DNA from: Anolis carolinensis
Taxonomy: Eukaryota
NCBI RefSeq assembly: GCF_035594765.1
Contig: NW_026943819.1
Span: 18,712,703 to 18,776,702, forward strand
DNA: 64,000 bases
Direction: 5' to 3'
Positions 2,870 to 46,806 of the stretch are shown here, piece by piece. The stretch's first letter is position 1, and each line of letters begins with the position of its first letter. A model generated the notes under the pieces. The model was not told where the DNA came from and did not search any database. It was given only the letters and a program-made list of their open reading frames with translations. The translations under genes and the position numbers were made by a program.

Positions 2870-3101
2870 TCGATCTGTGCATTAATGTTTTTACTGATTG
2901 TCATGTTTAAATTTATTGTTTTTTAATGTGAAATTTTATTATAATGTGTATGTTATTGTCATTTTATACTTTTGATATTAATGAAGAAATTGGGGCATTG
3001 AATGTTTGCCATTTATATGTATGTTAACCACCCTGAGTCCCTCTGAGGAGAGAGGGAAGTCTAGAAATAAAGTTTTTATTGTTGTTGTTGTTGTTGTTGT
3101 T
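2870..3101 (+). mobile_element. L2-like LINE 3' end with (TTA)/(GTT)n tail
   Basis: T-rich UTR, ccctgagtccctctgaggagagagggaag stem-loop, aataaagtttttatt(gtt)n. Confidence 0.7.
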
Positions 3102-3954
3102 GTATGACACAGCAAACAAGATAGATATGCTGGATTTCGTATCACAAAATCACAAGTCGAACACTTCCCAAGTGTCTAGGACTGTGTGATGTATTTTTGG
3201 ATGATGCGTGCAGATCCCAGTAGGGGTGGCCTTTTGCAGTTGGCAGATCATAATTTTGTCAATGTCTATTGTTTCCAAATGCCGGCTGAGATCTTTTGGC
3301 ACGGCATCCAATGTGCCGATCACCACCAGGACCACCTGCACTGGTTTCTGCCAGAGTCTTTGAAGTTCAATCTTGAGGTCCTGATAGCAGCTTAGTTTTT
3401 CCTGTTGTTTTTCGTCAATGCTACTGTCACCTGGGATGGCGACATCAATGATCCAAACCTTTTTCTTTTCCACAACTGTGATGTCTGGTGTGTTGTGTTC
3501 CAGAACCTTGTCAGTCTGGATTCGGAAGTCCCACAGTATCTTTGCGTGCTCGTTTTCCAATACTTTTGCAGGTTTGTGATCCCACCAGTTCTTTGCTGCT
3601 TGGAGGTGGTACTTGAGGCATATTTGGGCCACATAGTTGTGCCTCCGTTTGTAGTCTGTCTGTGCGATTTTCTTACAGCAGCTGAGGATATGATCAATGG
3701 GTCATCAGCTGATTTTTTGATCTTGGCCTTAATTGCATTTGTTCTGATGACTTGCTCCTGGGCTGCAAGGATCAGGCCTTCTGTCTCCTTCTTCAGGATC
3801 CCATTTGTGAGCCAGAGCCAGGTCTTCTCCTTATCAGCTTTTCCTTCAATTTTGTCAAGGAACTTTCCATGCAATGTTTTGTTGTGCCAGCTGTCAGCTC
3901 TAGTTTGTAGTGCAGTTTTCTTGTACTGTTTTTTTGTCTGCTGTGCTTTGAGGA

Positions 3955-3955
<1 letters not shown>
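3102..3955 (-). mobile_element. R4/Dong-clade non-LTR retrotransposon, 5'-truncated, frameshifted
   Basis: ORFs 3392-3874 and 3150-3632 encode HNTPDITVVE...DVAIP...EK (restriction-like endonuclease); flanked by (GTT)n and (TTA)n 3956-4004. Confidence 0.9.
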
Positions 3956-4005
<50 letters not shown>

Positions 4006-5605
4006 TCAAGAGAAGACAAACTGTGCTCTTTTAATTGTTGTTCTACTTGTCGTCAGCAGTACCCTCATGTGTTTTCCCCTTTGTAGGCAAATGTTTCACC
4101 ACTCTTCTAATAAAACAGAATACGGGAAATCTACATGTTCCTACCATCATCCCCGCTGTTTGCAATCTGTCAATGAAGTCATAGTCCACTGCTTTACAAA
4201 GTTCGGAAAAGACCCAATCTGATAAAATTCTGATGCAGCTGACTTATTCCTTATATCATCTGGAGTTTTGTGTGAATAAGGACCCAGTGGAATTGAGCAA
4301 GATTGATCTTATAAGGCTGCCTCTCTACTCTCTTTAACTTTTGTGACCCCAGGCACTGCACAGAGAGTTTGCTGAGCAAACAGGTATTCCAAGACTTTTC
4401 CTAGGTACAAATCAATTTTAATTACAACAAAGCCTTCCCACAATAGTGCTGCCAGCCAAATGGATCCCAAACTGTGTAGTATTTCCTTCCTTCATCCACT
4501 AACTATCTGAAATTAAATGGCGAGCTGTATTGCGGCAGGGCCATTGTCATGCAAACGAAGGAAAAACAACTTCCTTTCCAATTTTCTCATGCAAATAGAG
4601 ACTGCATTGTTGAGACAGAGAATGTGTTTTGCCATCTCAGTGGTTCTGCAAGAGAGATAAGAAGGATTGCACAAGTTTTGCAATTTCTAAACTGGCTGGT
4701 TGTTTACACACACCTCTCACAAAATGTTTAAACAAAATTAGTATCTAAAACAGCAAGGTCAGCAAACTGAAAATTTCATCAGCATTATTTTCTTTCTTTA
4801 TGCCATATATTCACATTTATTCTGTCCATCCTCTGGTTCAAAACACCAGGCTTAGCATTTTCAGAGTACTAAGAGCAAGAGTTCTCTCTGACTCTATTGG
4901 CTCAATCTAGGATTTGCAAACTAAGGATTATACTCCAGCAATATTCACCTAAGTGCCTTTAGAAATGCAGGCTTTTTGGAAGTGAAGTTTCAGTAAACAT
5001 GCATAACCTTGGGCTGTAATATTAAACTGAACATATTGCCATTTAAATTTTTGAGAACAGGTGTGTGTGTGTACCTGTGTGTGTATGTTCAGTTCTGTAC
5101 TAAGACTTCAAGGAAACAGGGTTTGAATCCATTGGGTGACTCTGGGCAAGTCACATGCTCTTAGCCTTACAGGGATACAATGGCAACCTTCGTCTGAACA
5201 AATCTTGGCAACAAAAGGCCTGACGGAGCCCCAATGGGGTTGCCATAAATCAGAAATAATTCTAAAGCACAGTACCATAATCTTTTATGATAGCCTGGTG
5301 TCTAAACACATGTTTTCAGTTATCTTTCTGACCATAATTCTAAAATTAGAATGAGTATTTAAACACTGTAACGCAATTTTTGCTGCAAGTGTTGTTTGTT
5401 GTTTCTGCCTTTAAGTCATTTTTAATTTAAGGTGGCTCTATGATAATCCTATCAATGTTTTCTGGGAGTGTGTGACTCTTCCGAGACCAACCAATGGGTT
5501 TCCATGATTGAGTAGGGAATCGTACCCTCATCACTGCTCATCATCATAGTCCAATGCTCAACTACACTCACTATCAAAACAACCATGCTGCCTGTTCTGC
5601 TATGC

Positions 5606-5740
5606 CAGTGGTTCTCAACCTATGGGTCCCCAGATGTTTTGGCTTTCAACTCCCAGAAATCCTAACAGCTGGTAAACTGATTGGGATTTCTGGAAGTTGT
5701 AGGCCAAAACACCTGGGGACCCACAGGTTGAGAACCACTG
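5606..5740. mobile_element. hAT-type MITE
   Basis: TIR CAGTGGTTCTCAACCT...AGGTTGAGAACCACTG; perfect 8-bp TSD TGCTATGC. Confidence 0.92.
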
Positions 5741-5921
5741 TGCTATGCAAAGGGGTGCATTTCTCATTATGTTTTGGCTTCTTCGTATCACAAGCATTTC
5801 TGAATATTATAAAAGACTCCTGCCTTCTATGGTTGGATCTACATCTATACTGCCCTATATCCCAGGATCAGATCCCAAATTATCTTCTTATTCCAGATTA
5901 TCTGGTAGTGTAGATTTATAT

Positions 5922-6238
5922 AAAGGTAAAGGTTTCCCCTGACATTAAGTCCTGTCATGTCTGACTCTGGGGGTTGGTGCTCATCTCCATTTCTAAGCCG
6001 AAGAGCCGGCGTTGTCCGTAGACACCTCCAAGGTCATGTGGCTGGCATGACTGCATGGAGCACAGTTACCTTCCCACCGGAGCGGTACCTATTGATCTAC
6101 TCACATTGGAATGTTTTCGAACTGCTAGGTTGGCAGAAGCTGGAGCTAACAGCAGGCGCTCACTCCGCTCCCGGGATTTGAACTTGGGACCTTTCGGTCT
6201 GCAACTTCAGCAGCTCAGTGCTTTAACACACTTCGCCA
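5922..6238 (-). mobile_element. Sauria SINE, near full length
   Basis: (ACCTTT)n tail, tRNA-like head with GTTCAAATCCC B box, conserved body. Confidence 0.9.
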
Positions 6239-7475
6239 GATCCTGGGATATAGGGCCTAATATGGGAGGAGAACAAGAGAAGATAAAACCAGAAAAGGGA
6301 AAAGACAGAGGATTAACTTGTCTCCTTGATGTGTAGCAAGTCCAGGGCAAGCGGAATCCATGCAACTTGGCCTTGTGATTTAATTGATCTTGGTAGAAAT
6401 GTTTTTAATTCTATCTCAAGAAAGTTTTCTGTCACAGAGTCCTCAAAGGAAAACCACCTTTGACTGCTCGCCCTCCCCAAAGCATCTTATTGTGAGAAAA
6501 ATTATAAGACACATTATTAGCAAGTTCTTTTCCATGACACAGTTGGGTCATAAAAATGCAGGCAATTCAAAGTATGGTTTGAATATCCAGGTACACAATA
6601 TAGGTTTCCAGGACAACATGCCAACAACATTCTTTTCCTAGTGAAAGAGGTTCACAGACCAATGCAAAGATGTTTCCACTTGACTACTGTACTTTTCACA
6701 TTTCTCTGACTATTTTTATACCATAGGAACTTAAATCACATCTTAGGTACCTCAAGACTGATACAAAATCTTAAGACACTCCTCCTATTCTTCTCAAAGG
6801 CTTTATCTTCACATCTTTAGTTTTCTACTTTCCCTTTTATTTTACTTCCAAGAAAGACTTACTCAGCCTTACTGCCATGATCATGTGGTCGAAGCCACAA
6901 AGCCACATACCACAAAGTAATAACTAACAGTGTTGGAGCTCCACTAATTACTCTACTCTTGGAGACCACCTTACTGAAGACAGGAGTCTCTCTTCAAACG
7001 CTTCACTTTTGTGATATACTAGGATATCATATCTTCTTAAACCTTACTTCTACAAGCTGTGGGGGCATAAAATAAGGACTTCAAAACAGAGAGTGGGCTA
7101 AGTTATTCCTCCACATTATCTGGGACAGAAATCCAGTATCCAGTATAATAGGACACACCAAGGGATGGATGTAGTCTTCAGTGCATTGCCAGCAACTTCT
7201 GAGTATGTTCAAAAAACAAGAGAGAAGTAAAGTGTGTCATTACTTGAGGATGGTCTTAGATCATGCTGGGTCTCACCTCACATTCTTAAGAGTTTTCTGC
7301 TGTTAATAAAATATTCACAAACCACTTCCTATACAGAAAAGCCAGCAGGACATACCAGTTTGAACCTCAACTATGACTTTGGAGACCAGTGTTTGATTCT
7401 TCTGCTTGGCCATGAAAACCCACTGACCTGTTGTAAGTCATACTCTCCCAGATTCAGAGAGAGAGTCACCATAAG

Positions 7476-7938
7476 TTTATTTACTTATTATTTATTTACA
7501 GTATTTATATTCCGCCCTTCTCACCCCGAAGGGGACTCAGGGCCGATCACATTATACACACATAGGGCAAACATTCAATGGCCATAAACACATCAAACAG
7601 AGACCGAGACAGACAGACGCAGAGGCAATTTAACCTTCTCCTGAGGGGATGTTCGATTCTGGCCACAGGGGGGAGCAGCTGCTTCATCATCCACTCTGAC
7701 GGCACAGGTCGTAAATTAGTTAAACTTGCCTCCCCACTTTTATAAGTGGTACCTTATTTCCTACTTGATAGATGCAACTATCTTTCGGGTTGCTAGGTCA
7801 GCAACGAGCAGGGGCTATTTTTTTATTTATTTTTAATTGATGGGTGCTCACCCTGCCACGGGCTGGCCTCGAACTCATGACCACATGGTCAGAGTGATTT
7901 ATGGCAGCTGCTCAACAGCCTGAGCCACAGCCCGGCCC
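7476..7938 (-). mobile_element. Anolis SINE2-like SINE inserted in an old CORE-type SINE
   Basis: Same body as the 1917 copy; AAGTT duplicated at both junctions. Confidence 0.88.
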
Positions 7939-9860
7939 AAGTTGAAAACAACTTGAAGGCTTACAAAAACTAAAAGCATGCTGGAGGTCTCTCTACAGAT
8001 GCTCAGATTTCAGATCTGTGGGGGGAATCACAGGTAGCATTACCTTGTTACACATGTGGCTCTTATGTCCTAAAAAAGCATATGGTTGGAACCAAATGGT
8101 AAATGTAATTACAAGGCAAAATATGAAACAATTAAGATTTGTTTCCCTTTTGTCAGTCCTCCAGCAGCAAAATCCAACAATCCTTTTTTAAGGAATTAAT
8201 TAGAATGCTTTTGGTTGCAGTCCAAATTGGAAAGGATGGGATGGTCTCAACTGGTAGAACAGGGTTTGGAGTCCTATGCTATCAGATAAATTAACTTGCA
8301 ACATCACAGTAATTAGAGAAACAGAAATGTGGACAAGTTGTTTCCATCTGCTGTGCTTTCATTTATTTCACTGACAAAGATGGCAAGGATTGCTTAGGAA
8401 ACTCAACAGAGGGGGTCTTTTAGTGAGTTGATGTGTGTACAGTCCATCCTTCATTGTTATGTTATGTATCTGAGAATATTTAACTAACTTTTAAAACAAA
8501 CAAACAATATTGCCAGCAGATGGGCAAGTAAAGAATATAGAAGCATCAAATGCAGTCACCCATCCAAAATGTGTACAGAGAAATGAAAGAAAGGAGACTC
8601 TTTAGATCACAATAAGAACTTATAAAGGGGAAGTGTTGAAGACAAGATTAAATATAGAAATCGTAACTGGGAAGAAATTTGACAAGTGAGTTGAACTTTT
8701 TTCCTGGGCTTGAATCATGGCATGGATCAGACGCACTCCGTAGGTGACTATGTGACACACTGCGAGAGACTGGCTGAGTAGTACAAACACTAAGATTTGG
8801 CCTCTGTCCACCTCAACATCGTTTTAAGTACTACTGAGTTGGACTCTTCCCTATGCTGTGTCCTGGCTCAGAGCCAGTTGTGCAGCATCCAAAAATAAAG
8901 TCACATGGCACCTTATTCTCATATCGTGAACACTTTCTAAATCAAGCTGTCAACCCCAAGAAAAACAACCATGCAACAGCACTCTACAGTCAAGCTTCAC
9001 ATTTCCAAATAATACCAAAGAATGAATTTCATCCAAGGGTCCCTTAAAAACTTCCTTTGGTCTTTAATGAAGCAATTCAAATTGCACGCTGCAAAACAAC
9101 TCTAAATAAGATGAAAGCCCACCTACATGGAGTTGTTAGCCAATATGACCTGAATCAAAGTTCCTTCTGAATGGGAATGCTAAAATAATTCACTGAGTTT
9201 GATTTTTTTTTCATTTTTCATCTTCTACTTAAACACTGGCTTTCTAATTATTCCTTAAGCAACATTACAAGCATGTATAAAAACGAAACTATTATTCTGG
9301 TGAAACAAGTATCCCAGAACCTGCTTCTGCCTGATTCCATCTAGTGATCTTTAAAATATCTACTAAATTGTTCTCCTTGAAACAGACTGGTGATTAATTG
9401 CCAACCTCTGTGCAAATTTCTCATCCCTCGTAATGAGGAATGCTTTGCTTTTCATCAAAGATTTAGCAATCTGTACCAAAAAAAACCCTCTCTATGAAAA
9501 AATTGCCTTTTCATTTTCTGAAGGAAATTACACATGTGCGCATACGGAGAGTGGGGATGGGGGGGGGCTGATGGATAAAAAAATCCAATACTTCTCATCT
9601 TTAAAAGCCTATACAGTAGGACAGCAAGCATCATAGCTCCGCTATACAATTTGAACAGTTTCTACACTTTACACAATTTGCATGAAAAATGTTCTCAGAA
9701 ATACAAAACCTGTCTGAATTGAGAGAACTATCCAGAAATACAATACCTCTCAGAATGGAGAGAACTATCTTGCAGGTAAGGCTGGGGAAAATAGTAGTTT
9801 TTCATTTTCATGTGAGAGAAGAAGACGTGTAAGGATTTCTTTACATTTCCAGGTCTATTC

Positions 9861-10355
9861 CTTTATTTATTTATTTATTTATTTACAGTATTTATATTCC
9901 GCCCTTCTCACCCTGAAGGGGACTCAGGATGGATCACATTATGTACATATAGGGCAAACATTCAATGCCCATAAACGCATCGAACCGAGACAGAGACAAC
10001 AGACAGACAGACAGACGCAGCGGCAATTTAACCTTCTCCTGAGGGGATGTTCGATTCTGGCCACAGGGGGGAGCAGCTGCTTCATCATCCACTCTGACTG
10101 CACTTCCTCACTTCCTCATTCCAACGCTGTAAATTAGTTAAACTTGCCTCCCCACTTTTATAAGTGGTACCTTATTTCCTACTTGATAGATGCAACTATC
10201 TTTCGGGTTGCTAGGTCAGCAACGAGCAGGGGCTATATTTTATTTTTAATTGACGGGTGCTCACCCCGCCACGGGCTGGCCTCGAACTCATGACCTCATG
10301 GTCAGAGTGATTTATTGCAGCAGCTGTTTACCAGCCTGCGCCACAGCCTGGCCCC
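9861..10355 (-). mobile_element. Anolis SINE2-like SINE
   Basis: Same body; (TAAA)n tail. Confidence 0.88.
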
Positions 10356-11663
10356 TTTAAAGCTGAGATGGTCAACTGCATGGGGAATGTGGCAATCTTT
10401 CTGCCTCAGACCTCGCTCCTCAAACACCTTCATTGCCCTCTGAAGACCTTATGGAATTGGAGACAGTAAGTGAATATGCATCTTTTCCTTCCACTAATTT
10501 GAGATATACCTCAAAAGAACATTTAAGGATCTCTTGTTCCTCTCCTGGAATATTTTCTCTGTAGGCCTTGTGGTATACAGGAGTCAGGGATGCCAGTGGG
10601 GATACGTTTTATGTGTTGGGGAAAGGATTCTACATGATTTTGCAAACATAGTCTGAAAATAATGATATTTCAAAAAAGAATTGACGGTTGAGAGACTTTG
10701 GGGGGCTCTGGGGACTGGCGGGGGCTTCAGAGGCACAAGTGGGACTGCATCACGTCTGAAGGCTGTACTTTGCTAACCCATTTTAAGGTCTATTGTGAAA
10801 TGTGGATCACAGAAACCTCAGAGACTGACTATTGAACTCAAAAGTATTCATGAAACAATCTGATGCTTTCAAACAAAATGTCATTTTGACACTAAAATGA
10901 ATTTACTCCCTTAATTTCCCTCAACAGTTTTGAAACTGAATATCTACAGATATTCCTTGAATGCTCAATGATTTCCTGAATATTTATTATGTATTTGCAT
11001 TAATTGCAACTGGCATGCAAGAACACCTTTTTTTGATTACACATTACACCTGACAGGATACCATATTTAATATATGACATAATCTGATGAATATGCAGTG
11101 GCATTTCATATATGTTAAGTGGAAAAGCTCATAAGATTTCACATGACTCAGGGCAATATAGAGAGAACACCAGGTCCAAATATTACATTTTGAATCCAAG
11201 AATCGCACAGAAGAAGTGTGGATATTGTATTGAATATTTGCAATTCAAAAATTGTGTACCATATTTGATATTTAGAAAATACATATTAAAATTAAATTCA
11301 TCTGTAATCAGATTGAAGGTTCTTTCATGGAATGTATTATTTCATTTAGTTTGAAATCACGCTTATATCTTCGTTGCTACATGCCTTGAGATCTTGAAGA
11401 GTTTAATAACTTGTTGTTGTGAACCTTTAAGCCATTTTCAGTCTATGGCAACGGTAAGACAAATGTATCAAAGGGGATTTTTTGGCAAGATTTATCCAGA
11501 AATGTTTTGCCTTTGCCTTCCTTTGAGGCCAAGACTTGCCCAAGGTCACCCAGTAGGTTTCCTTGGTTGAGCAGGGATTCAAACCCTGATCTCCAAAGAT
11601 ATAGTCCAACACTCAAACCACTACACCACTTTCCCTTAAATGGCTTGTCTCTAGTCTTTAATA

Positions 11664-12484
11664 CAGTGGTTCTCAACCGTGACCCAACAATGGGTTTCAA
11701 GAACGAAATCTGGTCCACAAACCTCCTTCCTCTTTAATTCTTTATTTTCTTTTCCTTCTGCAAAGCTGACCATTGCATTGGATAGACCATTAAATACTAG
11801 CTGTGCCCGGCCACATGTTGCTGTGGCAAAGTGGTGGTGGTATTGGTGAAAAATTGTTGTGTAAATTTTATTTGACGTTATTTGTATTTTTTAATTAATT
11901 TTATTGTAAGTTATCTTTTTATTTATTATATTTTATTATTTTCTTATATTATTTTTAGTTATTTTCTGTTATTATACTATTTTATTGTATTAATTTTTTT
12001 AGTGTTTTTAATTATTTTTTAGTGTTTTTTATTATTTTTTATTGGGTTGCTAGGAGACCAAGTTGGAGGAGCTTAGCCTTCTAACTGGCAACAATTAGAT
12101 AAAAGCAATTATTCCTCTCCCTCTAATTAGGACTTTATTTTTCTTTTCTTTTTGTTGTATCAACCTAGAGCCGTGGATGATGGGTTATGTTGTCAAATTT
12201 CGAGGTTGGGGGGCCTGTAGTTTTGTTGTTTTGTCTGGTGCCGTGATTCCATCACTCTTTTATATATATAGATAGTTTTCTGTGGGTGAGCGGATGGCGA
12301 CTACTGGATGGCATATGTTCTGTATCAGAAACTAGAGCTGATGTGGTCCAACCAATGCAATTTTCTGAATCAGCACCCCAAATAATTAAACCAAATTTAT
12401 GGTTGACCAAAAACTGATTCATAACCCTTTTGGTACTCAAAAGTTGGAAAGTGGGCCCTGGTCAAAAAAGGTTGGGAACCACTA
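11664..12484. mobile_element. Non-autonomous hAT element hosting a Helitron
   Basis: CAGTGGTTCTCAACC...GGTTGGGAACCACTA termini; 8-bp TSD CTTTAATA at 11656-11663 and 12810-12817. Confidence 0.8.
11797..12272 (-). mobile_element. Non-autonomous Helitron (A-rich subfamily)
   Basis: Minus strand A|TC...GCCAC-N8-GTGGC hairpin...CTAG|T; no TSD. Confidence 0.85.
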
Positions 12485-12807
12485 CAGTAGAGTCTCACTT
12501 ATCCAACATAAACGGGCCGGCAGAACGTTGGATAAGCGAATATGTTGGATAATAAGGAGGCATTAAGGAAAAGCCTATTAAACATCAAATTAGGTAATGA
12601 TTTTACAAATGAAGCACCAAAACATCATGTTAGACAACAAATTTGGCAGAAAAAGTAGTTCAATACACAGTAATGCTATGTAGTAATTACTGTATTTATG
12701 AATTTAGCACCAAAATATCACGATATATTTAAAACATTGACTACAAAAATGCGTTGGATAATCCAGAACGTTGGATAAGCGAGTGTTGGATAAGTGAGAC
12801 TCTACTG
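12485..12807 (+). mobile_element. Tc1/mariner (pogo/Tigger-like) MITE, ~323 bp
   Basis: TIR CAGTAGAGTCTCACTTATCCAAC; TA TSD. Confidence 0.92.
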
Positions 12808-14350
12808 TACTTTAATACAATCATTATTACAACTATGGTTCTGTAGCCTTGAGTTTATAATCTCTCTTCTAACACATCTTCATACTTGTCCCGATTTGGC
12901 CAGGACAGTCCCAATTAATCCTGTCATCTCGCTTTCCAGTTGTTTTTAAAGCATCCCAGTTTCTCTCTCCTCCTTTTATTTCCCACTTTACATCAGCTGC
13001 TACAATCTAAGCTCAATGTGCAAAAGGAGTCTGCATTCAACTCAACAAGGTTTCCTTTAAATTGAGGCAAGACATAAATGTTGCAGTCTTTCCCTCCCTA
13101 GTTTGTCTGTCCTTCCTCCTTAATATCTTATGCCAACTTGTCTGTACTCAGATGCTGCTTGGCAACACATGTCCCGGTTTTCATCTGTGAAATGTTGGCG
13201 GATAGGCATCTGGCTGTGTATTGGAGAGAGTGCATTTCCTACATATTCTTTACCTCTATTTCCTATCCACACTACCTGTAGTTTCCTGACATTCTAAATA
13301 ACAGTTTGAGGCAGGATCTGGGTATGATGCTGAGGCACTAGCCATACTGGACTAGCAGGGGGGCAGGCGAGGAAAGAGAAGATTTGTGTGCTGAGCAGCT
13401 GTCAGCTCTGCTTGCTGGCATCTAAAAGCATGTAATTCACAACTTCTGTAAGCCGGAGAAGTTATCATTTGGAAGTTGTTGCTGTGCAGTGGCTTGACAG
13501 TCTAACAATGCAATATAAATCTTCTATTCATGCCACTCTGGCAAGACTGAATCCCAGAAATAGGCAGCAAACAGCCAAGGTGGTGATAACTTCTTGTTAC
13601 AGCAACATTCACTTCCAGCAGTCAGGCCTGTCCTCATTACCATATATTATCTTGTTGCATATGCTGAAAGTCATGCCAGTGGACTTCATTGTTGCTGGGC
13701 CTTGCTTTACTCATCCCCAGTGTTAATGGCAGAAAATACTTCCATTTTCTCTTCGCTCTTTCTAAGTCCAAAGCCCAAGCAGCCTTCTCAGATAACTCAG
13801 GTTTTGACGTGTCTACCGCTTGTGGTGTTTTTTTGCCATTCCTTTGGCTGGTGGATTGAAGTTAAGCAGCCATCAAAGCCTTGTAAAATGGGATTCGGGG
13901 TTGTGAAAGAACAGCACTTTCCCTGCCTCAATGTACTTTGGGTCTTAGCATGGGATTTCAGGCAGAACATTAAAGCATTCCAGCCACCTAAAGGGATATT
14001 ATGTTCATCTCAAGAAATGGCTGTTAAGGAAAAATAAAGTTCAAGATACAGACAGAGAGAGAGAGATGGAGAAAACTAGCGAAGGTAAGATGACAAACTT
14101 TTGCAGCTGAATTTGAGAGAACAAACTCAGGGTAAATAAAAGCCTTCCCATGTATGATAAAGGCTCTGGCTATACTGTTTTGTTACAATTATCAAAGAGG
14201 GAGAGAGAAATCAGACATTTCTTTCTCTCATATAGACATAAAGATCAAATTTAATGCTTGCAACAGAAAGAAGCAGAGAGACTGAACTGGTCATGATGCT
14301 CCATATTAACGCCGGCACCAGAGAATGTATTCCACTAGCTCATTCTAATA

Positions 14351-25259: not shown

Positions 25260-25442
25260 TTGCCCAGCTCATTTTATGTTTTTATTGCTGTGTTTTTCAT
25301 GTGTTTTATAATGATTGTGATTTTTTAATGCCTTTTAAATTTATTTGTGTGTTTTTGTATTTGATATTACTGTATGCTGGTTTTATATCTGTAAGCCACC
25401 CCGAGTCCCTCTGGGGAGATGGTGGCAGGGTACAAAAATAAA

Positions 25443-25496
<54 letters not shown>

Positions 25497-25533
25497 CCCC
25501 ACCACCATCTCCCCGCAGGGACTCGGGGCGGCT
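25260..25533. mobile_element. Two L2-like 3' ends tail-to-tail sharing a (TTA)n
   Basis: gtaagccaccccgagtccc...ggggagatggtgg (+) and an inverted copy at 25496-25533. Confidence 0.75.
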
Positions 25534-26491
25534 ATGGAATGATGGGAGTTGCTAGTTTGGTGAGGCACCAGCACTCCTTGGCAGAGATAGCTAAAGACTT
25601 TGTAAAAATTACAAGTCCCACAGTTCCATAACACTGAGCCATGGCAGTTGAAGTAGTCTCAAATTACATTTGTTTTGCAGTACAGATGTACACACAGTCT
25701 ACTTTTTCAGATGTGCAGAGTGAGGCGAAGGTGTATTTCACTCCCTGCATCTGAGGAAGTAGTCTCAGGCTGAAAACTCATGCTAGCATGTGGCTCATTT
25801 GGGTCTGATTTATTTGACTTTGTACAGTGGTTGCTTTTTATCCTGGTTAAGTTTTAGGATTCTTGTTAATGGTTTTTATGGTTTTTAACTTTTATGGTGA
25901 ACCATCCAGAACAAATTGCCTATTCATCTCTATTGATGTAAAAACAAACATAGGGACATGGAGAAAAACAAGAACACTTTAATTGGAATAAATGAAGACA
26001 GGTAGTAATCTCATCTGGAGATGTCTGTAGGTATTTTTAGATTTTAGGTGGGGAAATAGCGACACTGCTCACACAATAAAGCTGACTTTGATGGTGATTG
26101 GATGTGAAAAACCCTACCAGACCAGCTCTCTGTGCTTCTTAACTTCAGGGTCCCATGATCAAATTGTTTTCCCTTTCCACATTGCTCCTCATGAACTCTT
26201 CTGCTCAACTCTCTGTGCCCGAGGGGACAGGGCTGGAAATGGAAGTACAGGCTTCCCTCGGGTGCCAAGCTGTCAGAGCCCACTCGGTTAGCATCAGATC
26301 TGCCCCTTCTCTCTTCACTACATTGAGATGAAATCTTTGGAGATGGAAAAACAAAAAGAGTAAGCTCTTACACTGAACTGGAAGTGAGGGGAGAAAAAGA
26401 AGTGGCAAGGGACCCAAGGGGAGCGACAACAGATAATCTTGAGAAATGGCTTTCTCTTGGGTTTCTGCAAGCTGTTTTCAAGAGCAACAGT

Positions 26492-26960: not shown

Positions 26961-27360
26961 TCTGGAACACAACACACCAGACATCACAGTTGTGGAAAAG
27001 AAAAAGGTTTGGATCATTGATGTTGCCATCCCAGGTGACAGTCGCATTGACGAAAAACAACAGGAAAAACTCAGCCGCTATCAGGACCTCAAGATTGAAC
27101 TTCAAAGACTCTGGCAGAAACCAGTACAGGTGGTCCCAGTGGTGACTGGCACATTGGGTGCCGTGCCAAAAGATCTCAGCCGGCATTTGGAAACAATAGA
27201 CATTGACAAAATCACAATCTGCCAACTGCAAAAGGCCACCCTACTGGGATCTGCACACATAATCCGAAAATACATCACACAGTCCTAGACACTTGGGAAG
27301 TGTTCAACTTGTGATTTTGTGATTCCAAATCCAGCATATCTATTTTGTTTGCTGTGTCAT
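26960..27360 (+). mobile_element. R4/Dong-clade retrotransposon, 5'-truncated
   Basis: ORF 26992-27288 gives the endonuclease C-terminus; (TAA)n on both sides. Confidence 0.92.
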
Positions 27361-27361
27361 A

Positions 27362-27412
<51 letters not shown>

Positions 27413-35200: not shown

Positions 35201-35280
35201 GGCTGTTGTTGGACTGTAACTCTTTGAATAAGAGGAATTTAATGCTGCACTGCAGCCACTCTAGCTTAATGCCCTTAAGG

Positions 35281-35415: not shown

Positions 35416-35612
35416 CCTTAAGCAAAGAACCAGTCTTTCCACTATTTTGTGCAGAGCAGACTCCTTAGCATTACCTGTGTCTTATGAATAGGAATTGACA
35501 AGACAGGTAGCTGCATCTGACACTAGCACTACCACTAACAGTATCCTTTTCTGTAACAGAGAATAGGAGGGTCCAGTTTAGTGGCTAAAGTTCAAGGGAC
35601 AAAAAGTAGATA

Positions 35613-36352: not shown

Positions 36353-37329
36353 TACTTTCATCAAGCACCATGCTTGCTACTTTGACTGACAGGAGAGAGA
36401 GTAAGAGACGGCAGGCAACAGATGGAGGCTGCCCTTGGTTCGAGGTCCAGGAACAATGCCATGTTGAATCCAATAGTACTTATGGTCCTGGAAGGTAGTA
36501 GAACACACAAGTCTATCCTCCAGTATCTTACAAACTGTTACCATGTATTACCAGAGACAATGCTTAGGGCAACTGCTTCAGTCTACTTCTACACGGTCCG
36601 TCCTGCCATATGCCCTGTTCCTATAAGGATCAGAATGGGGCAACAGAATTGGGGGAACTTGCATTTGTGAGCACCTTCTTTAGCCAAAGCCCTAGAAAAC
36701 CCCGTAGCGATGTACCAATTTATCTGATGCAAACAAAAGCCCTTCAGAAAAAAGTGAGGAGTCCCAGCTGCAAGCTAAGCCTGGCTTGAGCTCCATGAAT
36801 CCAGGTTCCAGAGCGACCCTATTAAAAAGCCATGTCTCTTCCATTAGAAGAAGCATAATTCCGACTTGGTGCATCCCAGGCAACAGTCCCCGGCAATTGT
36901 GTTTGTCTCTCTACTCGAGCTAAGAAATTAGTTATCTGTCTAAAACAAGCCGGCAGTTTCAAATGGTGTTTTTGTGCAATTTGCATGCCTCAACAATGTT
37001 TTATGTATTATGCTGCTTATAAGCTAAAATGTACATGCACGCTTCTGCAAATTTAGGTAAATTATGAATAAATTAAATCTTATCTAAATAAACAAGTGTC
37101 TTTTTGAACAGGAATGCAAGCTGTCATGAATATTTAAGTGGACAAGGATAAATCCTCTCCATACACTATTACTTCAAAGAGGATTTTCTAGCTTCCTGGG
37201 TTTTAGGAAGGGGGCTTTTTCAGATAGGTTTTTTTTTTAAATCAGAGAATTCAGAAGAGAAGAGGAAGGAAGGAAAATAGGTAGGTAGGAAGAACATGAA
37301 GCCTTAAGGTACTGTTACTGATTAGAAGG

Positions 37330-39165
37330 GAAAGAAGTATTCAAGGATTGCAAATCAAGACTGATAGGGAGTTAGGCTTCACCTAGCTAACTTAAACACA
37401 TTCAAATCTGCAGGGCCAGATGAAGTGCATTCCAAAGTATGGAAGGAACCTGCTTGATGTACTCTCTGAACCATTTGCCATCATTTTTGAGAAGTCATTG
37501 AGAATAGCTGGAAAAGGGCAAACATTGTTCATCTTTTCAAAAAATGGCAAAAAATGCCCAGGAAATGACAGACTAGTCAACTTGACCTCAACAGCAGGAA
37601 ACAAAAATATTAAAATTGATTATATGTCTATCTTCAAGTATCATGATGACAATCCAGTGATCAATAGAAGCCAGCATGGGTTTATCAAGAACCAATCCTA
37701 CCAAACTAATATTATATCTTTTTTTCGCATCACAAGTTTAGTAAATGGCAAGAAAGCTGTGGATGTCATTGATCTGGACTTCAACAAACCCTTTGATCAA
37801 GTCCCCCATAATATTTTGATCAACAAACTGATTAAATGTGAAATAGATGAGAACACAATTAGATTGACCATGGTTTTACAATGAATTATGGATCCAAGAG
37901 TCATCATGAATGACTGTGCTTCAAACTGGGAGGCGGTTGTACCCTGTTTCCCTGAAAATAAGACATCCCCGAAAAATAAGACCTAGTAGAAGTTTTGCTG
38001 AATTGCTAAATATAAGGCCTCCCCCGAAAGTAAGACCTAGCAAAGTTTTTGTTTGGAAGCATGCCCAGCACCTGCCAAACACAGTTTGTCTGGTTATGCT
38101 GGTTTGTGATGACAACTACTGTACAGTATATAATAAATGTTCATGTTTTAGTTCAACAATAAATGTGAATTCTTCTTCATGGAAAAACAAGACATCCCCT
38201 GAAAATAAGACCTAGCACATCTTTGGGAGCAAAAATTAATATAAGACACTGTCTTATTTTCGGGGAAACACGGTAAGTAAAATGCCTCAGGGTTTTGTCC
38301 CATGGCAATTACTCTTTAATATTTTTATCATTGTCTTAGGCAATGGGGCAAAGGAATTTTTTTTATCAAGTTAGCACATGATATTAAACTTGGAGGGCTG
38401 GCTAACACATTAGAGGATAGGGACAGTATTCCAAATAGCATAGATAAATTAGAAAGTTGGACAGAAATCAATAACATGAAATTTATTGGACACAAATGCA
38501 AAATTCTACATTTAGGCCACAAAAACCAAATGGATGGAGGATACATGGCTCAGCAATACTAAATGTGAAAAGGACTTTGGGATTATCATAAACTAAAAAG
38601 TGTGATTCTGCAGCAAAAGTGAATGCTATTTTACCCTGTGTTAATAGAAGCATACTTTCCAAGCTGATGGAAATAATAGTCTATATTATATTCTGGTCAG
38701 GCCTCATCTGGAGTACTGTGTTCAATTCTTTTAAGAAGGATACAGGCAATTTGGAGCAGATTCAGAGAAAGTCAATAAGGATGATGAAAGGTATGGAGAA
38801 TAAAAGATATCCAAAAAGGTTGAAGGAGCTGGGCATGTTCAGCTTGGTGAAGACAAGACTGATGTGACTGCACTCTTTAAATACCACAAGGACTATCATA
38901 GAGAGGAGGGAGCAGGCCTGTTGCCTCAGAGGGTAGAACCAGGTCTAATGGTTTGAAGTTGCAGGAGAATCAATTTCAACTGAACATTAGAAGGATCTAA
39001 TGTAGGGTGGTTAGGCAATGGAACCAGTTGTTTAGAGAGGGGGTGAGGTATCCTTCTCTGGATTTCTGCAAAAAGAGACTGGGGATATTGTAGCTGGAGA
39101 TTCTGCACTGAGCAAGGGGCAGGACCTGGTGGCTCTTGAGGCTCCTCCAACACTATGATTCTATA
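37330..39165 (+). mobile_element. Old degenerate CR1 LINE (RT region to 3' end), split by a MITE
   Basis: SQHGF...VDVIDLDFNKPFDQVPH, PQG and ADD-like remnants; ends ccaacactatgattctat. Confidence 0.88.
37942..38273. mobile_element. Tc1/mariner-type MITE, third family
   Basis: TIR CC(G/C)TGTTTCCC(C/T)GAAAATAAGACA; TA TSD. Confidence 0.88.
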
Positions 39166-39357
39166 AATGTGCTGTAAAGATGAGCACTGGGTATAAATCA
39201 ACTATCAGTTGGTTCGTTTCCTGGAAGTTGCAGGGAAACGTATTTGTGTCCATCACTCTGGCCATTTCTCTATTTTAGAAATCAGTCAAGGCTTCAGCAG
39301 GATCACTACCAATGTAACAGGAAACCCAAAGAGGCATCAGGAATCCTTCTGGATGCA

Positions 39358-40276
39358 TGCACTACAAACTAGAGCTGACAGCTGGCACAACAAAACATTG
39401 CATGGAAAGTTCCTTGACAAAATTGAAGGAAAAGCTGATAAGGAGAAGACCTGGCTCTGGCTAACAAATGGGACCCTGAAGAAGGAGACAGAAGGCCTGA
39501 TCCTTGCAGTCCCTTCGGGGAGATGGGGCGGGGTATAAAAATAAAGTTATTATTATTATTATCATAGCCCAGGAGCAAGCCATCAGAACAAAGGCAATTA
39601 AGGCCAAGATCGAAAAATCAGCTGATGACCTAAAATGCAGACTGTGCAAGGAAACCGACGAAACCATTGATCATATTCTCAGCTGCTGTAAGAAAATCGC
39701 ACAGACAGACTACAAACAGAGGCACAACTCCATGGCCCAAATGATCCATTGGAACTTATGCCTCAAGGACCACCTCCCAGCAGCAAAGAACTGGTGGGAT
39801 CACAAACCTGCAAAAGTATTGGAAAATGATCACGCAAAGATACTGTGGGACTTCCGAATCCAGACTGACAAGGTTCTGGAACACAACACACCAGACATCA
39901 CAGTTGTGGAAAAGAAAAAGGTTTGGATCATTGATGTTGCCATCCCAGGTGACAGTCGCATTGACGAAAAACAACAGGAAAAACTCAGCTGCTATCAGGA
40001 CCTCAAGATTGAACTTCAAAGACTCTGGCAGAAACCAGTACAGGTGGTCCCGGTGGTGATGGGCACATTGGGTGCCGTGCCAAAAGATCTCAGCTGGCAT
40101 TTGGAAACAATAGACATTGACAAAATTACGATCTGCCAACTGCAAAAGGCCACCCTACTGGGATCTGCATGCATCATCCGAAAATACATCACACAGTCCT
40201 AAACGCTTGGGAAGTGTTCGACTTGTGATTTTGTGATATGAAATCCAGCATGTCTATCTTTTTTGCTGTGTCATAC
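39358..40276 (+). mobile_element. R4/Dong-clade retrotransposon, 5'-truncated, with 58-bp insertion
   Basis: CRLCKETDETIDHILSCC zinc knuckle, RHN, PDI..D..EK endonuclease in ORF 39504-40202. Confidence 0.93.
39510..39567 (+). mobile_element. Minimal L2-like 3' tail inserted into R4
   Basis: tcccttcggggagatggggcggggtataaaaataaag(tta)n interrupts cttgcag|cccaggagc, which is contiguous in other copies. Confidence 0.85.
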
Positions 40277-40293
40277 AATAAAATAATAATAAA

Positions 40294-40294
<1 letters not shown>

Positions 40295-40344
<50 letters not shown>

Positions 40345-40712
40345 TTATTTTTATACCCCACCTCCATCTCCCCAGGCGGACTCGGGGCGGCTTACAAATA
40401 CAAAATGAACATACAATAATATCAATACTAAGAAACACGCAAATGAAAATTAAAAGGCATAAAATAAATTACAATCGTTTCTCAAACACAAGTTAAAACG
40501 CAACGATAAAAACATAAAATGAACTCGGCAAAAGTGCACTGAGTGAGACTTGTAAACATGAAGGAAGTTAAAGTGCTCTAAAATCATGGGGAGAACCTTA
40601 AAATGGGGTGAACCCTGAGGTAACCATGCAGGTGCAACCAATCAGAGGTAACTGCTAGTATGAAAATTTAATGTACAATGGGCGGTAGTTATTTAAAAGC
40701 CTGGGCGAAGAG
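40295..40712 (-). mobile_element. L2 LINE 3' fragment with (TAA)n tail
   Basis: Minus strand LFAQAFK* at 40712-40689, UTR, gtaagccgccccgagtcc stem-loop. Confidence 0.78.
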
Positions 40713-41380
40713 CATAACCCTCCTGGGGTGAACCCCTGCGTTCTAGCATGTCTAAAAACCCCGGGTTTATGTTTCAGGTGTTTAATATATATTTAAAGCA
40801 CACACATTTTCCGTCAGGCACTTCTCAAATATTTTTATTCCCTCCCACCCCCCACCCTATAAATATTTGAGGAAGTGTATGCTGAGATGACTCAATTGAC
40901 TCCTGATGGAAAATTGATTCCTCACACATTTGTTAACTCCAGTATGAGGTTAACATGTCTCATCAGGTCCAGATCTCTATTATGCAGTTACCTGTTTCAT
41001 GAACACTTGTTTGCAGAGCAGTTAATACCAAAACTGCTACATCAAGACTCCTAAGATTTAATTGCATGCGTTCGTGAAGCACTTTGGCCTTTTAAAATAA
41101 AAAGGTGCTAGAGAAGGGCAAAGTGTCATTACCAGCTGCAGATAAACCCTTAATAATCTTCTCTTGGCACGGACTGGGTGTCTTTTAATACCATCTCTGT
41201 ATAGCAATAGTTCCTGATTATGGCACATCTGGGAGTCGGGTAATATAGCACATTCCTAGGAAAAGGAAGGGCGAGAAGGATCAACTCTGATATAATTATT
41301 TATATTCCCATGTTCATCCCTTTCTAGGAATATTGGCTTCCTGGTGTCAAAATACAGTTTATAAAGGCTAAGGATAAATA

Positions 41381-41703
41381 CAGTAGAGTCTTGCTTATCC
41401 AACGTAAACAGGCCGGCACAACGTTGGATAAGTGAATATGTTGGATAATTAGGAGAGATTAAGGAAAAGCCTATTAAACATCAAATTAGGTTATGATTTT
41501 ACAAATTAAGCACCAAAACATCAGGTTATACAACACATTTGACAAAAAAAGTAGTTCAATACACAGTAATGCTATGTAGTAATTACTGTATTTACGAATT
41601 TAGCACCAAAATATCATGATGTATTGAAAACATTGACTACAAAAATGTGTTGGATAATCCAGAACGTTGGATAAGCGAGTGTTGGATAAGTGAGACTCTA
41701 CTG
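41381..41703 (+). mobile_element. Tc1/mariner MITE (CAGTAGAG family)
   Basis: TIRs and TA TSD. Confidence 0.92.
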
Positions 41704-41777
41704 TACCACCCAACAATTGGATTTCCTGGAAAGCTACTCCCTAGCAGGTTTAGCATAGTGGCAATGAGTCTGAACTA

Positions 41778-42110
41778 CAGTAGAGTCTCACTTATCCAAC
41801 ATTCACTTATCCAACATTCTGGATTATCCAACGCAGGCTGCCTTTTAGTAGTCAATGTTTTTGTAGTAAATGTTGCAATGTTTTGGTGCTAAATTCGTAA
41901 ATACGGTAATTAGTACATAACATTCCTGTGTATTGAACTGCTTTTTCTGTCATATTTGTTGTAGAACATGATGTTTTGGTGCTTAATTTGTAAAATCATA
42001 ATGTAATTTGATGTTTAATAGGATTTCCTTAATCTCTCCTTATTATCCAACATATTTGCTTATCCAACGTTCAGCCAGCCAGTTTATGTTGGATAAGTGA
42101 GACTCTACTG
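41778..42110 (-). mobile_element. Tc1/mariner MITE (CAGTAGAG family, variant)
   Basis: TIRs and TA TSD; inverted relative to 41381. Confidence 0.9.
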
Positions 42111-42591
42111 TACAACTAAGGAGTAAAAATCAACAGGCAATGAGTATCAGATTTGTAGAATAGTTTCAGTACTTGTATGTTTAGAAGATGTATATTTATG
42201 ATGGTGCCAGTTTTGTGTGTGTGTTTCAGATTTGGTTGTGTCAGATGTAGTAGTTTTAGTGTTATATATCACAATTTTTTTCTTTGTATTGTTTTTTCTT
42301 CACTTCATAATAAAAAAAAGTATTAACAAAGTATCCACCACAAATTTACCTCTCAGCTTCAGTTTTCCCAACTGTAGTAACAAAGATAATGGAACTGATT
42401 ACAGAGTAGTTGTCAGAAGTCCAACCACACAAGGCTCATGAAGACTTGGCAGATTTGGAAGCACCATGATAAATACTTTTCAGTTCCATAGGGCTTTCAT
42501 GTATATCTAGTTACAAGCATTTCCTGTACTTTATCAATGGAATCCGCAATGCAATGTACTACAGAGTTTATTCAAAATTAATATCTAGAGG

Positions 42592-42728
42592 GTTTTTTTC
42601 GTGTCAGGAGCAACTTGAGTCACTTCTGGAGTGAGAGAATTGGCCGTCTGCAAGGACGTTGCCCAGGGGACGCCCAGATGTTTTGATGTTTTTACCATCC
42701 TTGTGGGAAGCTTCTCTCATGTCCCTGC
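42592..42728 (-). mobile_element. 5'-truncated A-tailed SINE (family of 55781)
   Basis: gttgctcctgacacgaaaaaaa on minus strand; TSD ATCTAGAGG. Confidence 0.85.
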
Positions 42729-43959
42729 ATCTAGAGGTTAGGAAGGCTATTATACACCTCCTAGTATCTATGATGGCTGGGAGCTTCTGAGAGATATAAT
42801 CCAAATAAACAACTTCTCCATGATTCTATAACCCATACAACAGCCCTGTGAAGACAGATTCTCTTGGCATCTGTATAGACTTCCCTCTTCCTCTAATGAA
42901 GGAAGGAGTTGTTCAAAGTGTACGTCAGTTTCTTTTCCAGCTTTCCTGTGTTTGCAGGACTTTATAAACATACTCCAAACATAATCCCAAAGAAATGAAG
43001 GCTAATGATAAAGATGCCAACACAATGGGACCAAGCAAATATTATTCTTAGATGTCAACTGGGCCTCTTGAGAAAGATATTTTGATCCCTTGTTGTCATC
43101 TATTTTTGTCCCCTTGTGACATCTAATCAATCAAGGTATGTTTCTTGGAGAGCCTGAAGAAAACTCTTTGGGATACAGTTCATTTACCTTCCCTGCCATG
43201 ACCAACCGCAAGACATTTTGAGATTGGAGAGATGCCAGAGGTGGGGGCAACAGATGACAAATGAAGTCATCTGAGGAAGGGAAATGGGACCACCCCCAAC
43301 CTCATGCCCTATCTCCTTTATATTTTAAAAAACATATAGTTTTGATGGCTAATCACAGAGTGCTGAGCCGTGAGGTCTATCCATTATCAAAAGGCTGCTT
43401 AACACAGAAACTGGGAGGCAGACTAGGAGCCTGACTTCATAAATCAAAGCTTGACAAGCACTCCCAAACTGATATAAAATAGTCCTTCTAACGTCTGTGG
43501 CCTGCATACACTCTATTCATTTTACTTTCTAAAATAATAGATGAATAGCAATCAAAAACAATCTATTCCCCTCTGGCAGGAGTCTCATGTCTTCATTTTT
43601 CAAATGGGCAATGATGTTGACTGAACAATGGTGAGTAAGTGAGGCAGGGCATGAGCAAGGAGCATCTACGTGAGGGACAACTGGCGATTAAGATGACACC
43701 AGGTCGTCTTGTGTCTCATGCACTCTTAAACACTAAAAACACATCTCCCTGTGCAAATATGTTCAGCTTAATTAAATACTTTGGGACAAGGAGCTCCACA
43801 GATAAATTGATGCTCTCCAGCTTTTGAATGCATCACACACTGATAGAGTCAGGGTCCTGAGCTGCATTTAGGAGATACAGAATTAATCTCTAGGGTTTTC
43901 AGGGTTTAAACTCAAGAACAGGAAAAATATACATATTCTTATTTGTATATTAGATACTG

Positions 43960-44161
43960 GTTGTTGAGGTTGGTCTGATGCACTTTTATAAATTTTTTTT
44001 ATAAAATGCTGTATTTCAATGTTTTAATTAGACTGTTATATGTTATGTTTTTAATTATGTTTTAGCTGGTAAATTTTGTTGTATGTTCTGAGCTTGGTCC
44101 CGCACGTAAGCCGCCCCGAGTCCCTTTGGGGAGATGGTGCTGGGGTATAAAAATTAAGTTG

Positions 44162-44219
<58 letters not shown>

Positions 44220-44232
44220 TACTACTACTACT
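43960..44232 (+). mobile_element. L2-like 3' end with (TTA)n tail
   Basis: gtaagccgccccgagtccctttggggagatgg...(tta)n. Confidence 0.75.
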
Positions 44233-44344
44233 TGCACAGAACAACAGCAGTGATGCTGGTGCAATCTGCCCATAATTACTAGTTATGCATCAAATCACTT
44301 TGCAGCAAAAATCCTCAACCATCACATGCAGTATCAATATGTAT

Positions 44345-44478
44345 CACACATGGGCAAACTTGGGCCCTCCAGATGTTTTGGACTTCAACTCCCAGAAATC
44401 CCAGTCAGTTTACCAGCTGTTAGGAATGTAGGAGTTGAAGTCCAGAACACCTGGAGGGCTGAAGTTTGCCCGTGCCTG
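44345..44478. mobile_element. hAT-type MITE
   Basis: CA..CATGGGCAAACTT TIRs; TSD ATAT(G/A)TAT. Confidence 0.85.
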
Positions 44479-44508
44479 ATATATATGCTTTCTTGAGGAC
44501 CTCAGAGT

Positions 44509-44552
<44 letters not shown>

Positions 44553-44604
44553 TTAATTACTTATTAATCGCCCTCCATCCACGATGCTCTAGGCGATTTA
44601 CAAG
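44509..44604 (-). repeat. (ATC)n microsatellite with L2-like tail
   Basis: Minus strand tgtaaatcgcctagagc...gggcg followed by (GAT)n. Confidence 0.6.
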
Positions 44605-46335
44605 ATAAAATTATCTTCCTGCATTTCAGATTTTGTGCAAACAAAGGATTCTAGAATCCTTCCAGATATATTGTCAAGTTGTACTTTTGTCTTATTTATC
44701 AACAAGGTTCAGTTTTGAAAAGAGAGACACTTATACATAATAGGTTTCAAGTGGAAAACCCAAGCAGGAGACTCTAGTTTCTTGGCTAGAGTACTGAGGG
44801 TATTCACAACATAAGGTTGTTATACTTTGGCTTCCCCAAAGAGTCTCTACAAATGAAAATGCCTTCTTTTCCTGGGGATAGAGAATTAAGTTAGCACTCT
44901 CAAGCTAGCTTTTTTAAAAAAATAATTTCGCACAGCTCACAGATTTAACATATTCACAGAGCAATGTTGTTTCTTTCCTTATAAAAGAGAGTTTTGCCTG
45001 CTATCAATTTCAATCAAATTATATGCAATACAGGACTGCAAAAAAGAAGGCTTAAATTGCTTTGTCTGTTTCTTCCCACACTCCACCTTCAGCTTTCAGA
45101 AGGAATAAGGCTTGATCTTTTCAAATGTAAATCAAGCAATTTGCAAAAAATATGTATTTTGGCATTTATGCAATGCAGCTTTCAAAACAAACCTGGGATT
45201 TTATTGATTTTGTGAACTGTCATCTAAATGAGTTATCTATGGCTGGTAATTTGCAGCATTAATGAGAAAGGAATCTTTTCATTTATAATGACTAGTTTGA
45301 AAAAAAATCCCCCCCACACACATATTAAAAAACCCACCCAAACTCCTGAGCTTGCATGATTTTGTTGTTTGGAACCTCCCACCTTCCTGTTTTTTAACAA
45401 ATAGAAAAAAGCAATTGAACATAACTATTGTGGAAGATATGAAGTTGTAATTTTCAAACTTTGCCTTGACTATCAGCCTACACATAATAGCATGTGCTGC
45501 ACTTTCACAAAGAAAACTCCACATACTTAAAGTCAGCCTCTCCATCACATTCTCACCGATGGATTATGAACTAGAGGGTAATATCCAATTATTAGGGATG
45601 TGTGATCCATAAAAAAGTTCAAAAGTCATTAAAACTTGGGGACACTGGCATTTCATTTCTAAAGTGTTTCTAAAATATAGTTAGTGAAAAATTTGTTACT
45701 ATAATGAGAGTAACGAAATTTCATTACTATTTCGTTATAACAATTGCACGTAATTACTATTATCAGGGAAAATTCAGGGGCTCCTTCTTCCTTCATTTCT
45801 ATAGCTATTGGGGTGAAACATGCTACAATGGTAAACCACATTTATAAACAACATTTTTAATAATAAAGAAAATATGTTCCTAATTTGACAGTATCATGTC
45901 CAGTTTAATTGTATAGTCTTTACTTTGAAAGTAGTGGTTCTACACCAGGAACTTTGTTTTTGCTCCAAAAGCTTTGTTAAATAGGTGGATGACGATGTTA
46001 AGTTAGTAGACTGGAAACAACAGCAAAATGTGCTATAACACATTGTCCCTCGTGCAAAGACAAAGTTTTTGCAGTTTAATAAACTTTCAGCATGTTTTTG
46101 TGATAGAACCAATTAGGAAATGACATTTATAATCCAGGAACAAAAAAATAATAATTTATTGGAACTCTGGCTCACTACAGAGGGTCAAATCTCTCTGATG
46201 GTGAGCAGTGCACTACATTCTGAGAAATGTAGTTTAGGGCAGGGCATAGGACTCCTTCCTTCCAAACTACATTTCCCAGGGTTCTGTGCTGTTCACGTAA
46301 AACACTTAACATCATCACCCACCCATTTAACAAAC

Positions 46336-46497
46336 TTTTATTATAATGTTTATGTTATTGTCATTTTATACTCTTGATATTAATGAAGAAATTGGGGCAT
46401 TGAATGTTTGCCATTTATATGTATCTTAACCGCCCTGAGTCCCTCTGAGGAGAGAGGGAAGTCTAGAAATAAAGTTTTTATTATTATTATTATTATT

Positions 46498-46530
<33 letters not shown>
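46336..46530 (+). mobile_element. L2-like 3' end, near-identical to 2934-3101
   Basis: Direct sequence match. Confidence 0.85.
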
Positions 46531-46532
<2 letters not shown>

Positions 46533-46751
46533 ATGACACAGCAAACAAGATAGATATGCTGGATTTCATATCACAAAATCACAAGTCGAACACTTCCCAA
46601 GTGTCTAGGACTGTGTGATGTATTTTCGGATGATGCGTGCAGATCCCAGTAGGGTGGCCTTTTGCAGTTGGCAGATCATAATTTTGTCAATGTCCATTGT
46701 TTCCAAATGCCGGCTGAGATCTTTTGGCACGGCACCCAGTGTGCCCATCAC

Positions 46752-46753
<2 letters not shown>
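46531..46753 (-). mobile_element. R4/Dong-clade retrotransposon 3' end
   Basis: GTLGAVPKDLSRHL...RKYITQS*; (TTA)n 46754-46806. Confidence 0.9.

Positions 46754-46806
<53 letters not shown>

Follow-up and report, generated by a model that had tools for sequence, protein, structure and literature searches.

In a 64,000-nucleotide stretch of the Anolis carolinensis genome (contig NW_026943819.1; this whole stretch is referred to as the window), two loci each show, read on the plus strand, an L2-like retroposon tail followed by a (GTT)n run, an antisense piece of an R4/Dong-type retrotransposon and an (ATT)n array. These composites probably represent two L2-like sister tails into which a TAA-targeting R4 inserted on separate occasions, each time from a different source element. 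That the composite instead moved as one unit, either by R4 3′ transduction or by break-repair copying of 392 bases between ATT arrays, is less likely. The parts of the two loci, with an offset of 43,402 bases between copy 1 and copy 2, are as follows.

2838..3078, plus strand: copy 1, L2-like 3′ end of a long or short interspersed nuclear element (LINE/SINE), 5′-truncated and without open reading frame (ORF), delimited by multi-copy depth and by alignment of the tail motif with nine other tails.
2934-3078, plus strand: part of the copy 1 tail common to copy 2 (within-window comparison).
3079..3103, plus strand: copy 1, (GTT)8 at the R4 3′ junction (Tandem Repeats Finder, TTG x8.3).
3103..3955, minus strand: copy 1, R4/Dong-type piece, 5′-truncated, comprising the ORF end and the 3′ untranslated region (UTR), from alignment.
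3956..4005, plus strand: copy 1, (ATT)17 at the R4 5′ junction (TTA x16.7).
46336..46477, plus strand: copy 2, shorter L2-like 3′ end with the first bases TTTTATTAT (equivalent to 2934).
46478..46532, plus strand: copy 2, (ATT)8 then (GTT)11 at the R4 3′ junction (TTA x7.7; TTG x11.3 at 46499-46532).
46532..46753, minus strand: copy 2, R4/Dong-type 3′ end of 222 bases with the 'VMG' marker (C at the 3318 equivalent).
46753..46806, plus strand: copy 2, (ATT)18 at the R4 5′ junction (ATT x18).

With this layout confirmed, together with the matches of the tails (4 mismatches in 145 bases) and of the common R4 parts (7 differences in 223 columns), which reach E values of 7e-68 and 1e-103 in within-window BLAST, the composite is indeed present twice, 43 kb apart, as stated in the first-pass annotation. 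The same search revealed no likeness between the flanks outside the ATT runs. Different truncation, also noted at that stage, holds for both constituents: the R4 portion extends over 853 bases in copy 1 and 222 in copy 2, with an identical ACAA/CAA junction, and the tails begin at different points. The latter was deduced from contigs of four public runs aligned to positions 2450-3400 (951 bases, with 3068-3110 left out as repeat), whose summed depths give allele shares and boundary placement only, not copy numbers. In runs X15 and X10, representing two organisms, depth is single-copy to 2837 and multi-copy from 2838, and the copy 1 tail is therefore about 96 bases longer than that of copy 2. 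The single-copy contig ends at 2867, and contigs crossing 2838 from the single-copy flank (X15, X10) extend 28-29 bases beyond this position, i.e., less than the 31-base bar, and were not counted as bridging. In X11 and X13, positions 2866-2960 are almost without cover at 86% likeness, and in X13 the cover of the flank declines near 2839; as such a gap is no proof, it was given no weight. The R4 piece of copy 1 additionally shows internal deletions of 15 and 34 bases, a frameshift and the 'VVIG' marker (G at 3318), and the (ATT)17 following it is likely the remainder of the tail array. Close to copy 2, an inverted repeat (45967-46003 and 46304-46339; 37 bases, 89% alike, E 4e-7) adjoins the left edge of the composite with its right arm and has no match beyond the arms.

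Central to our interpretation is the contact of R4 with TAA arrays. At four of the five window copies the R4 5′ end touches such an array, while positions within 10 nt of an array make up 1.1% of the window (P ~8e-8). Altogether, 11 perfect arrays of at least six ATT units are found at nine sites. Because five of these nine sites contain R4 and the R4-free arrays (four of four) are all L2-type tails, an R4 lying in a tail is the common case in the window. The composite layout would then follow, since TAA targeting alone would place R4 antisense in ATT tails. In the literature, Dong elements are described as targeting TAA repeats (PMC3812793) and as members of the R4 lineage whose 5′ junction is flanked by TAA (PMC3774820), R4 is counted among the mostly target-specific clades with restriction-like endonuclease (RLE) (PMC4640811), and for other motifs LINEs are described as seeding microsatellites in squamates (PMC6050309). 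A TAA-array preference of R4 in anole was not found stated in our literature search, which left out Novick et al. 2009 on anole LINEs. For comparison with the two composites, the window offers the following control copies.

26961..27361, plus strand: R4 copy flanked on either side by TAA arrays, with an antisense L2-type tail (weaker match) behind it.
39358..40275, plus strand: R4 copy without TAA at the 5′ end; an ATT array and an antisense L2-type tail lie past the 3′ end.
59594..60369, plus strand: R4 copy with (TAA)12 at the 5′ end and (TGA)6 at the 3′ end, without L2-type tail.
51503..51627, plus strand: R4-free L2-type tail ending in (GTT)7(ATT)18.
44158-44218: second R4-free tail, (GTT)3(ATT)17.

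Two of the control R4 copies thus adjoin an antisense tail that belongs to other families (at 40345 and, with a weak match, at 27411), and the 3′ junctions of all three read TAA, TAA-then-ATT and TGA, in agreement with the earlier description. At three of the four TAA-flanked R4 copies the TAA array meets another triplet, namely at 3103 (CAA), 46532 (CAA) and 60369 (TGA), a small number of cases hinting at a preference of R4 for the 3′ edge of a TAA array. R4's own end reads ACAA, matching the CAA run.

Two sequence features had been put forward as marks of a single source, the (GTT)n run, described as unusual, and the DKIMIC variant, which is encoded by both copies according to translation. 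Neither carries much weight, as both recur without the composite. Two of the four R4-free tails (44158, 51553) likewise show (GTT)n preceding (ATT)n, so that the run is not peculiar to the composites, and the copy at 59594 is similarly situated between TAA and another triplet (TGA). DKIMIC results from an ACG>ATG change at a CpG and makes up about 19% of family depth in X15, compared to 11-25% at other CpG sites. Among 38 anole proteins examined, 21 do not cover the site in their last 120 residues, and the variant is found in 2 of the 17 that do, one having Met and one Ile at the nearby marker codon.

The R4 pieces differ at two markers common in the family. Copies 1 and 2 disagree at 3311, where the other allele has 42% of depth, and at 3318, where it has 32%. 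Nowhere else in the 951 bases does G>C reach 5%, and the codon of 3318 in 18 covering anole proteins encodes Met, as in copy 2, in 15 cases, Ile, as in copy 1, in two and Val in one. Such differences are what separate sources would give. A site-wise comparison over 17 sites under three rate settings resulted in log10 likelihood ratios of 2.5-3.9 for separate sources, which we discount by judgement to a ratio of roughly 30-300.

From the observed arrangement of the parts, the R4 ends touching TAA in the window, the compound GTT/ATT tails that lack R4 and the differing alleles, we infer the remaining steps. Both tails would derive from one small L2-like lineage, either from the same source or through a local copy predating R4, and their terminal array was probably (GTT)n(ATT)n before R4 arrived. 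As R4 would read TAA on its own sense strand, it would have to lie antisense in an ATT tail. Target-primed reverse transcription would start from the array's 3′ edge, with the terminal ACAA matching the CAA run, and would end prematurely, after 853 bases in one case and 222 in the other, so that (ATT)n remains past either 5′ end. That the tails are kin does not conflict with R4 having inserted separately, given that R4 is present in about half of the array sites, often at a triplet edge. All parts belong to known families, and a TAA-targeting R4/Dong element nested in a LINE tail is an expected outcome. Papers on nested or chimeric LINEs in Anolis or on UnaL2 microhomology were not found in the literature search.

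Several observations weigh against separate insertions. First, both tails have G at 2993, where T accounts for 95.5% (X15) and 98.7% (X10) of family depth and G for at most 4.5% and 1.3%, respectively. Their 26-base tail end is identical and differs from the ends of the nine other window tails in the alignment; with up to 3 mismatches allowed, it is found twice in the window and not once in 100 shuffles. Because of this rare base and the odd tail end, part of the shared ancestry is real, and the two L2-like tails are, judged from these bases, probably close kin. Finding such close kin within 43 kb requires a local copy, or a small lineage plus luck. Second, copy 2 lies wholly inside the span of copy 1, and a two-unit ATT motif (TTATTA at copy 1), as present at 2.2% of random positions, is found at the left edge of both. 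Third, the likelihood ratio depends on two sites that lie 7 bases from each other and within 15 bases of the truncation of copy 2, treats sites as unlinked and uses depth shares instead of copy numbers; moreover, all four allele pairs of 3311/3318 occur among the window copies, which argues for homoplasy or recombination at these sites. Fourth, the R4 pieces of copies 1 and 2 are the closest of ten pairs, with 7 differences versus 9-18 in the others. A tree of the R4 3′ ends, proposed as a check in the first-pass annotation and built from five 223-base ends, does not reject a clade of copies 1 and 2 (p value of the approximately unbiased test 0.31) and gives firm support to neither inner branch. 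Finally, no tail-only (L2-only) or empty allele was seen in the contigs.

The ATT motifs at the left edges fit equally well with priming by an ATT-tailed LINE, R4 transduction into TAA and microhomology repair. Similarly, a TTATT target-site duplication is compatible with both sites and does not separate the models, and duplications are unreadable inside ATT arrays. Of the features to be expected from a propagated composite, variable 5′ truncation with one fixed junction is present (853 and 222 bases), whereas the element parts do not share one source haplotype (3311 and 3318 differ) and the carried flank has not acquired a new tail, as neither poly(A) nor an array is found there but only the two-unit ATT motif. 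Hence, from the earlier proposal of a chimeric unit spreading from one source, the close kinship of the tails (base 2993, tail end) stands, while movement of the whole unit is not favored, with the copies differing at 3311/3318 and the markers recurring alone. Had the composite been copied as one, either a conversion tract or two subsequent changes onto common alleles would be required.

Among the ways of moving the unit as a whole, a local DNA copy is unlikely but fares best. Here, 392 bases of copy 1 (2934-3325) would have been inserted into an ATT array 43 kb off by break repair or template switching, primed by the match of TTTTATTAT, and 3311 and 3318 would have been altered by later changes or a short conversion tract. 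In one step, this would account for how close the copies are, for base 2993, for the identical tail end and the GTT run, and for the copy 2 span lying within that of copy 1, and at the left edge there is a 9-base match to an ATT array. However, the two later changes, one of them a transversion, must land on common family alleles, nothing is common to the flanks past the ATT runs, and a truncation to 222 bases beside (TAA)n is the normal R4 pattern in the window.

Slightly less probable still is R4 3′ transduction, as suggested in the first-pass annotation, in which an R4 RNA would continue beyond the end of the element, via the CAA run, into the antisense tail, to be reverse-transcribed into TAA targets. 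For an element of the RLE type, this would be unusual. It would give variable 5′ truncation in R4 and variable ends in the tail. In its favor, R4 truncation varies, with TAA at both 5′ ends, both far ends adjoin a short ATT motif, and the rare tail base is shared. On the R4 strand, copy 2 ends in TAATAAAA, similar to the R4 end at 40275, and priming inside the flank at TAATAAAA, resembling R4's own end, is proposed for this version. Daughters of one transducing element should agree at 3311 and 3318, yet they differ; neither poly(A) nor a TAA array is found at the transduced end, and an RNA route would give no reason for landing 43 kb away unless copies are many.

Very improbable is a read-through driven by L2, likewise suggested in the first-pass annotation, with L2 RNA extending through the tail into the antisense R4, stopping at different 3′ points and receiving a new (ATT)n tail. 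While, on the L2 strand, both units finish with (ATT)n and their 5′ starting points are unequal, R4 copies without a tail of this lineage make the same (TAA)n contact, one of them having no tail at all (59594), and the R4 markers differ between the copies. In addition, LINEs with essential 3′ UTRs are described as needing their 3′ end at the RNA end (PMC3747384), whereas the hairpin would sit 250-900 bases upstream of it. The case named beforehand as refuting the composite, copy 2 being an assembly artefact of copy 1, is hardly credible because of 11 sequence differences, unequal repeat lengths and unique flanks, and with 13 runs containing at least half of the words of 45600-47200 (0.53-0.62), even if its junctions are without a spanning read or contig.

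Separate R4 insertions into sister tails being the preferred reading, the identity of both constituents deserves attention. The tails, which we take to be L2-like, have the hairpin motif GCCC.GAGTCCC in common with nine others in the window and bear a tandem-repeat tail, here ATT/GTT arrays, as is characteristic of the L2 type. A 7-bp hairpin forms in both, with z values versus shuffles of -0.79 and -0.39, compared to -2.62, -1.97 and 0.08 in related tails. Upstream of 12 tails, the stop-free stretch comprises 82 residues at longest, and the tails of copies 1 and 2 are without ORF. A search of metagenome contigs with the R4 end and the tail end gave no matches.

For the R4-type piece, 91-95% amino acid identity to A. 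carolinensis reverse transcriptase (RT) proteins was found, which in the database are named only 'reverse transcriptase domain-containing'. The window copies encode a CCHC knuckle and a PD..D nuclease motif (CRLC..DHILSCC, PDITVV..WIIDV), and the full-length relative P0002 has a 1137-aa ORF with RT domain PF00078. The arrangement is thus that of the R4/Dong clade, a single ORF with RT followed by a C-terminal CCHC knuckle and the PD..D RLE. To a solved R2 protein, there is a weak match over the knuckle and nuclease motifs (E 0.19). The label R4 is inferred from ORF size and base content, the 1137-aa ORF of P0002 fitting the 3.8-kb R4 consensus given for A. carolinensis (PMC5389967) and the A content of 35-37% in the window copies fitting the 38.2% given for lizard R4 ORFs (PMC7140322); all window copies differ from this consensus in being truncated.

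Some further observations concern the same elements. For the R4-type ORF end at 39567-40199, the closest non-anole relatives are proteins of the scorpion Centruroides sculpturatus. Identity to P0002 amounts to 80-87% in C. sculpturatus, 77% in Phrynocephalus and 65-68% in Hemicordylus (proteins P0002, P0005, P0006, P0137), and in a 26-row tree the anole and scorpion rows group together with a Shimodaira-Hasegawa-like approximate likelihood ratio support of 99. Judged by these proteins, horizontal transfer of an R4-type element is possible, as is contamination; no paper on an anole-scorpion R4 transfer was found in the literature search. Pieces of the R4 ORF also appear as exons in anole gene models, among others of STIP1, ZKSCAN5, ABCD2 and coatomer gamma (P0007, P0028, P0044, P0086, P0106, P0107), which are likely annotation errors. 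In line with TAA targeting, contigs from elsewhere in the genomes pass from R4 into (ATT)n at position 3195, with 87 such contigs in X15 and 83 such contigs in X10 among the matches listed. This point is about 90 bases from the R4 3′ end and marks either a position of repeated truncation or a short family derived from R4. Reverse nesting is seen at 39510-39566, where a 57-base L2-type 3′ end with (TTA)6 interrupts the R4 coding sequence outside any ATT repeat, and at 25390-25540 two L2-type tails are arranged tail to tail with one common (ATT)17 array. A run of N at about 53074-53223, visible as X in an ORF, marks an assembly gap.

If the two R4 pieces were inserted separately, one retroposon using the microsatellite tail of another as target would produce look-alike 'chimeras' by convergence, which can mislead repeat annotation. 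If the unit moved as one, it would be a case either of an RLE-type element transducing its flank or of template-based copying from one microsatellite to another, and in the case of transduction LINE-seeded microsatellites would be both landing pads and cargo.

Among known systems, the window element resembles Dong of the R4 clade (Bombyx mori Dong, DongAg and DongBg), for which insertion into TAA microsatellites is described (PMC3812793), as seen here at four of five 5′ ends, and the TAA-flanked 5′ junction reported for this member of the R4 lineage (PMC3774820) is likewise found at the window copies. The likeness is one of description, and Dong is placed under the apurinic/apyrimidinic endonuclease type in PMC3812793, but in R4, itself counted among the RLE clades, in PMC3774820 and PMC4640811. 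In contrast to Dong, the arrays in the window are tails of other retroposons, and one of the five copies is without TAA at the 5′ end. The tails resemble the 3′ ends of the Anolis L2 LINE and Anolis SINE2, listed as a pair for A. carolinensis (PMC3747384), in having the GCCC.GAGTCCC hairpin motif and a short tandem-repeat tail, but copies 1 and 2 are without ORF and have a divergent tail end and hairpin z values of only -0.8 and -0.4. L1 3′ transduction, as outlined in PMC3812793, shares with the composites a variably 5′-truncated retroposon piece joined to one downstream flank. Here, however, the far end has no poly(A), the element parts disagree at family markers, and the flank, being a repeat itself, has a tail that R4 prefers as target.

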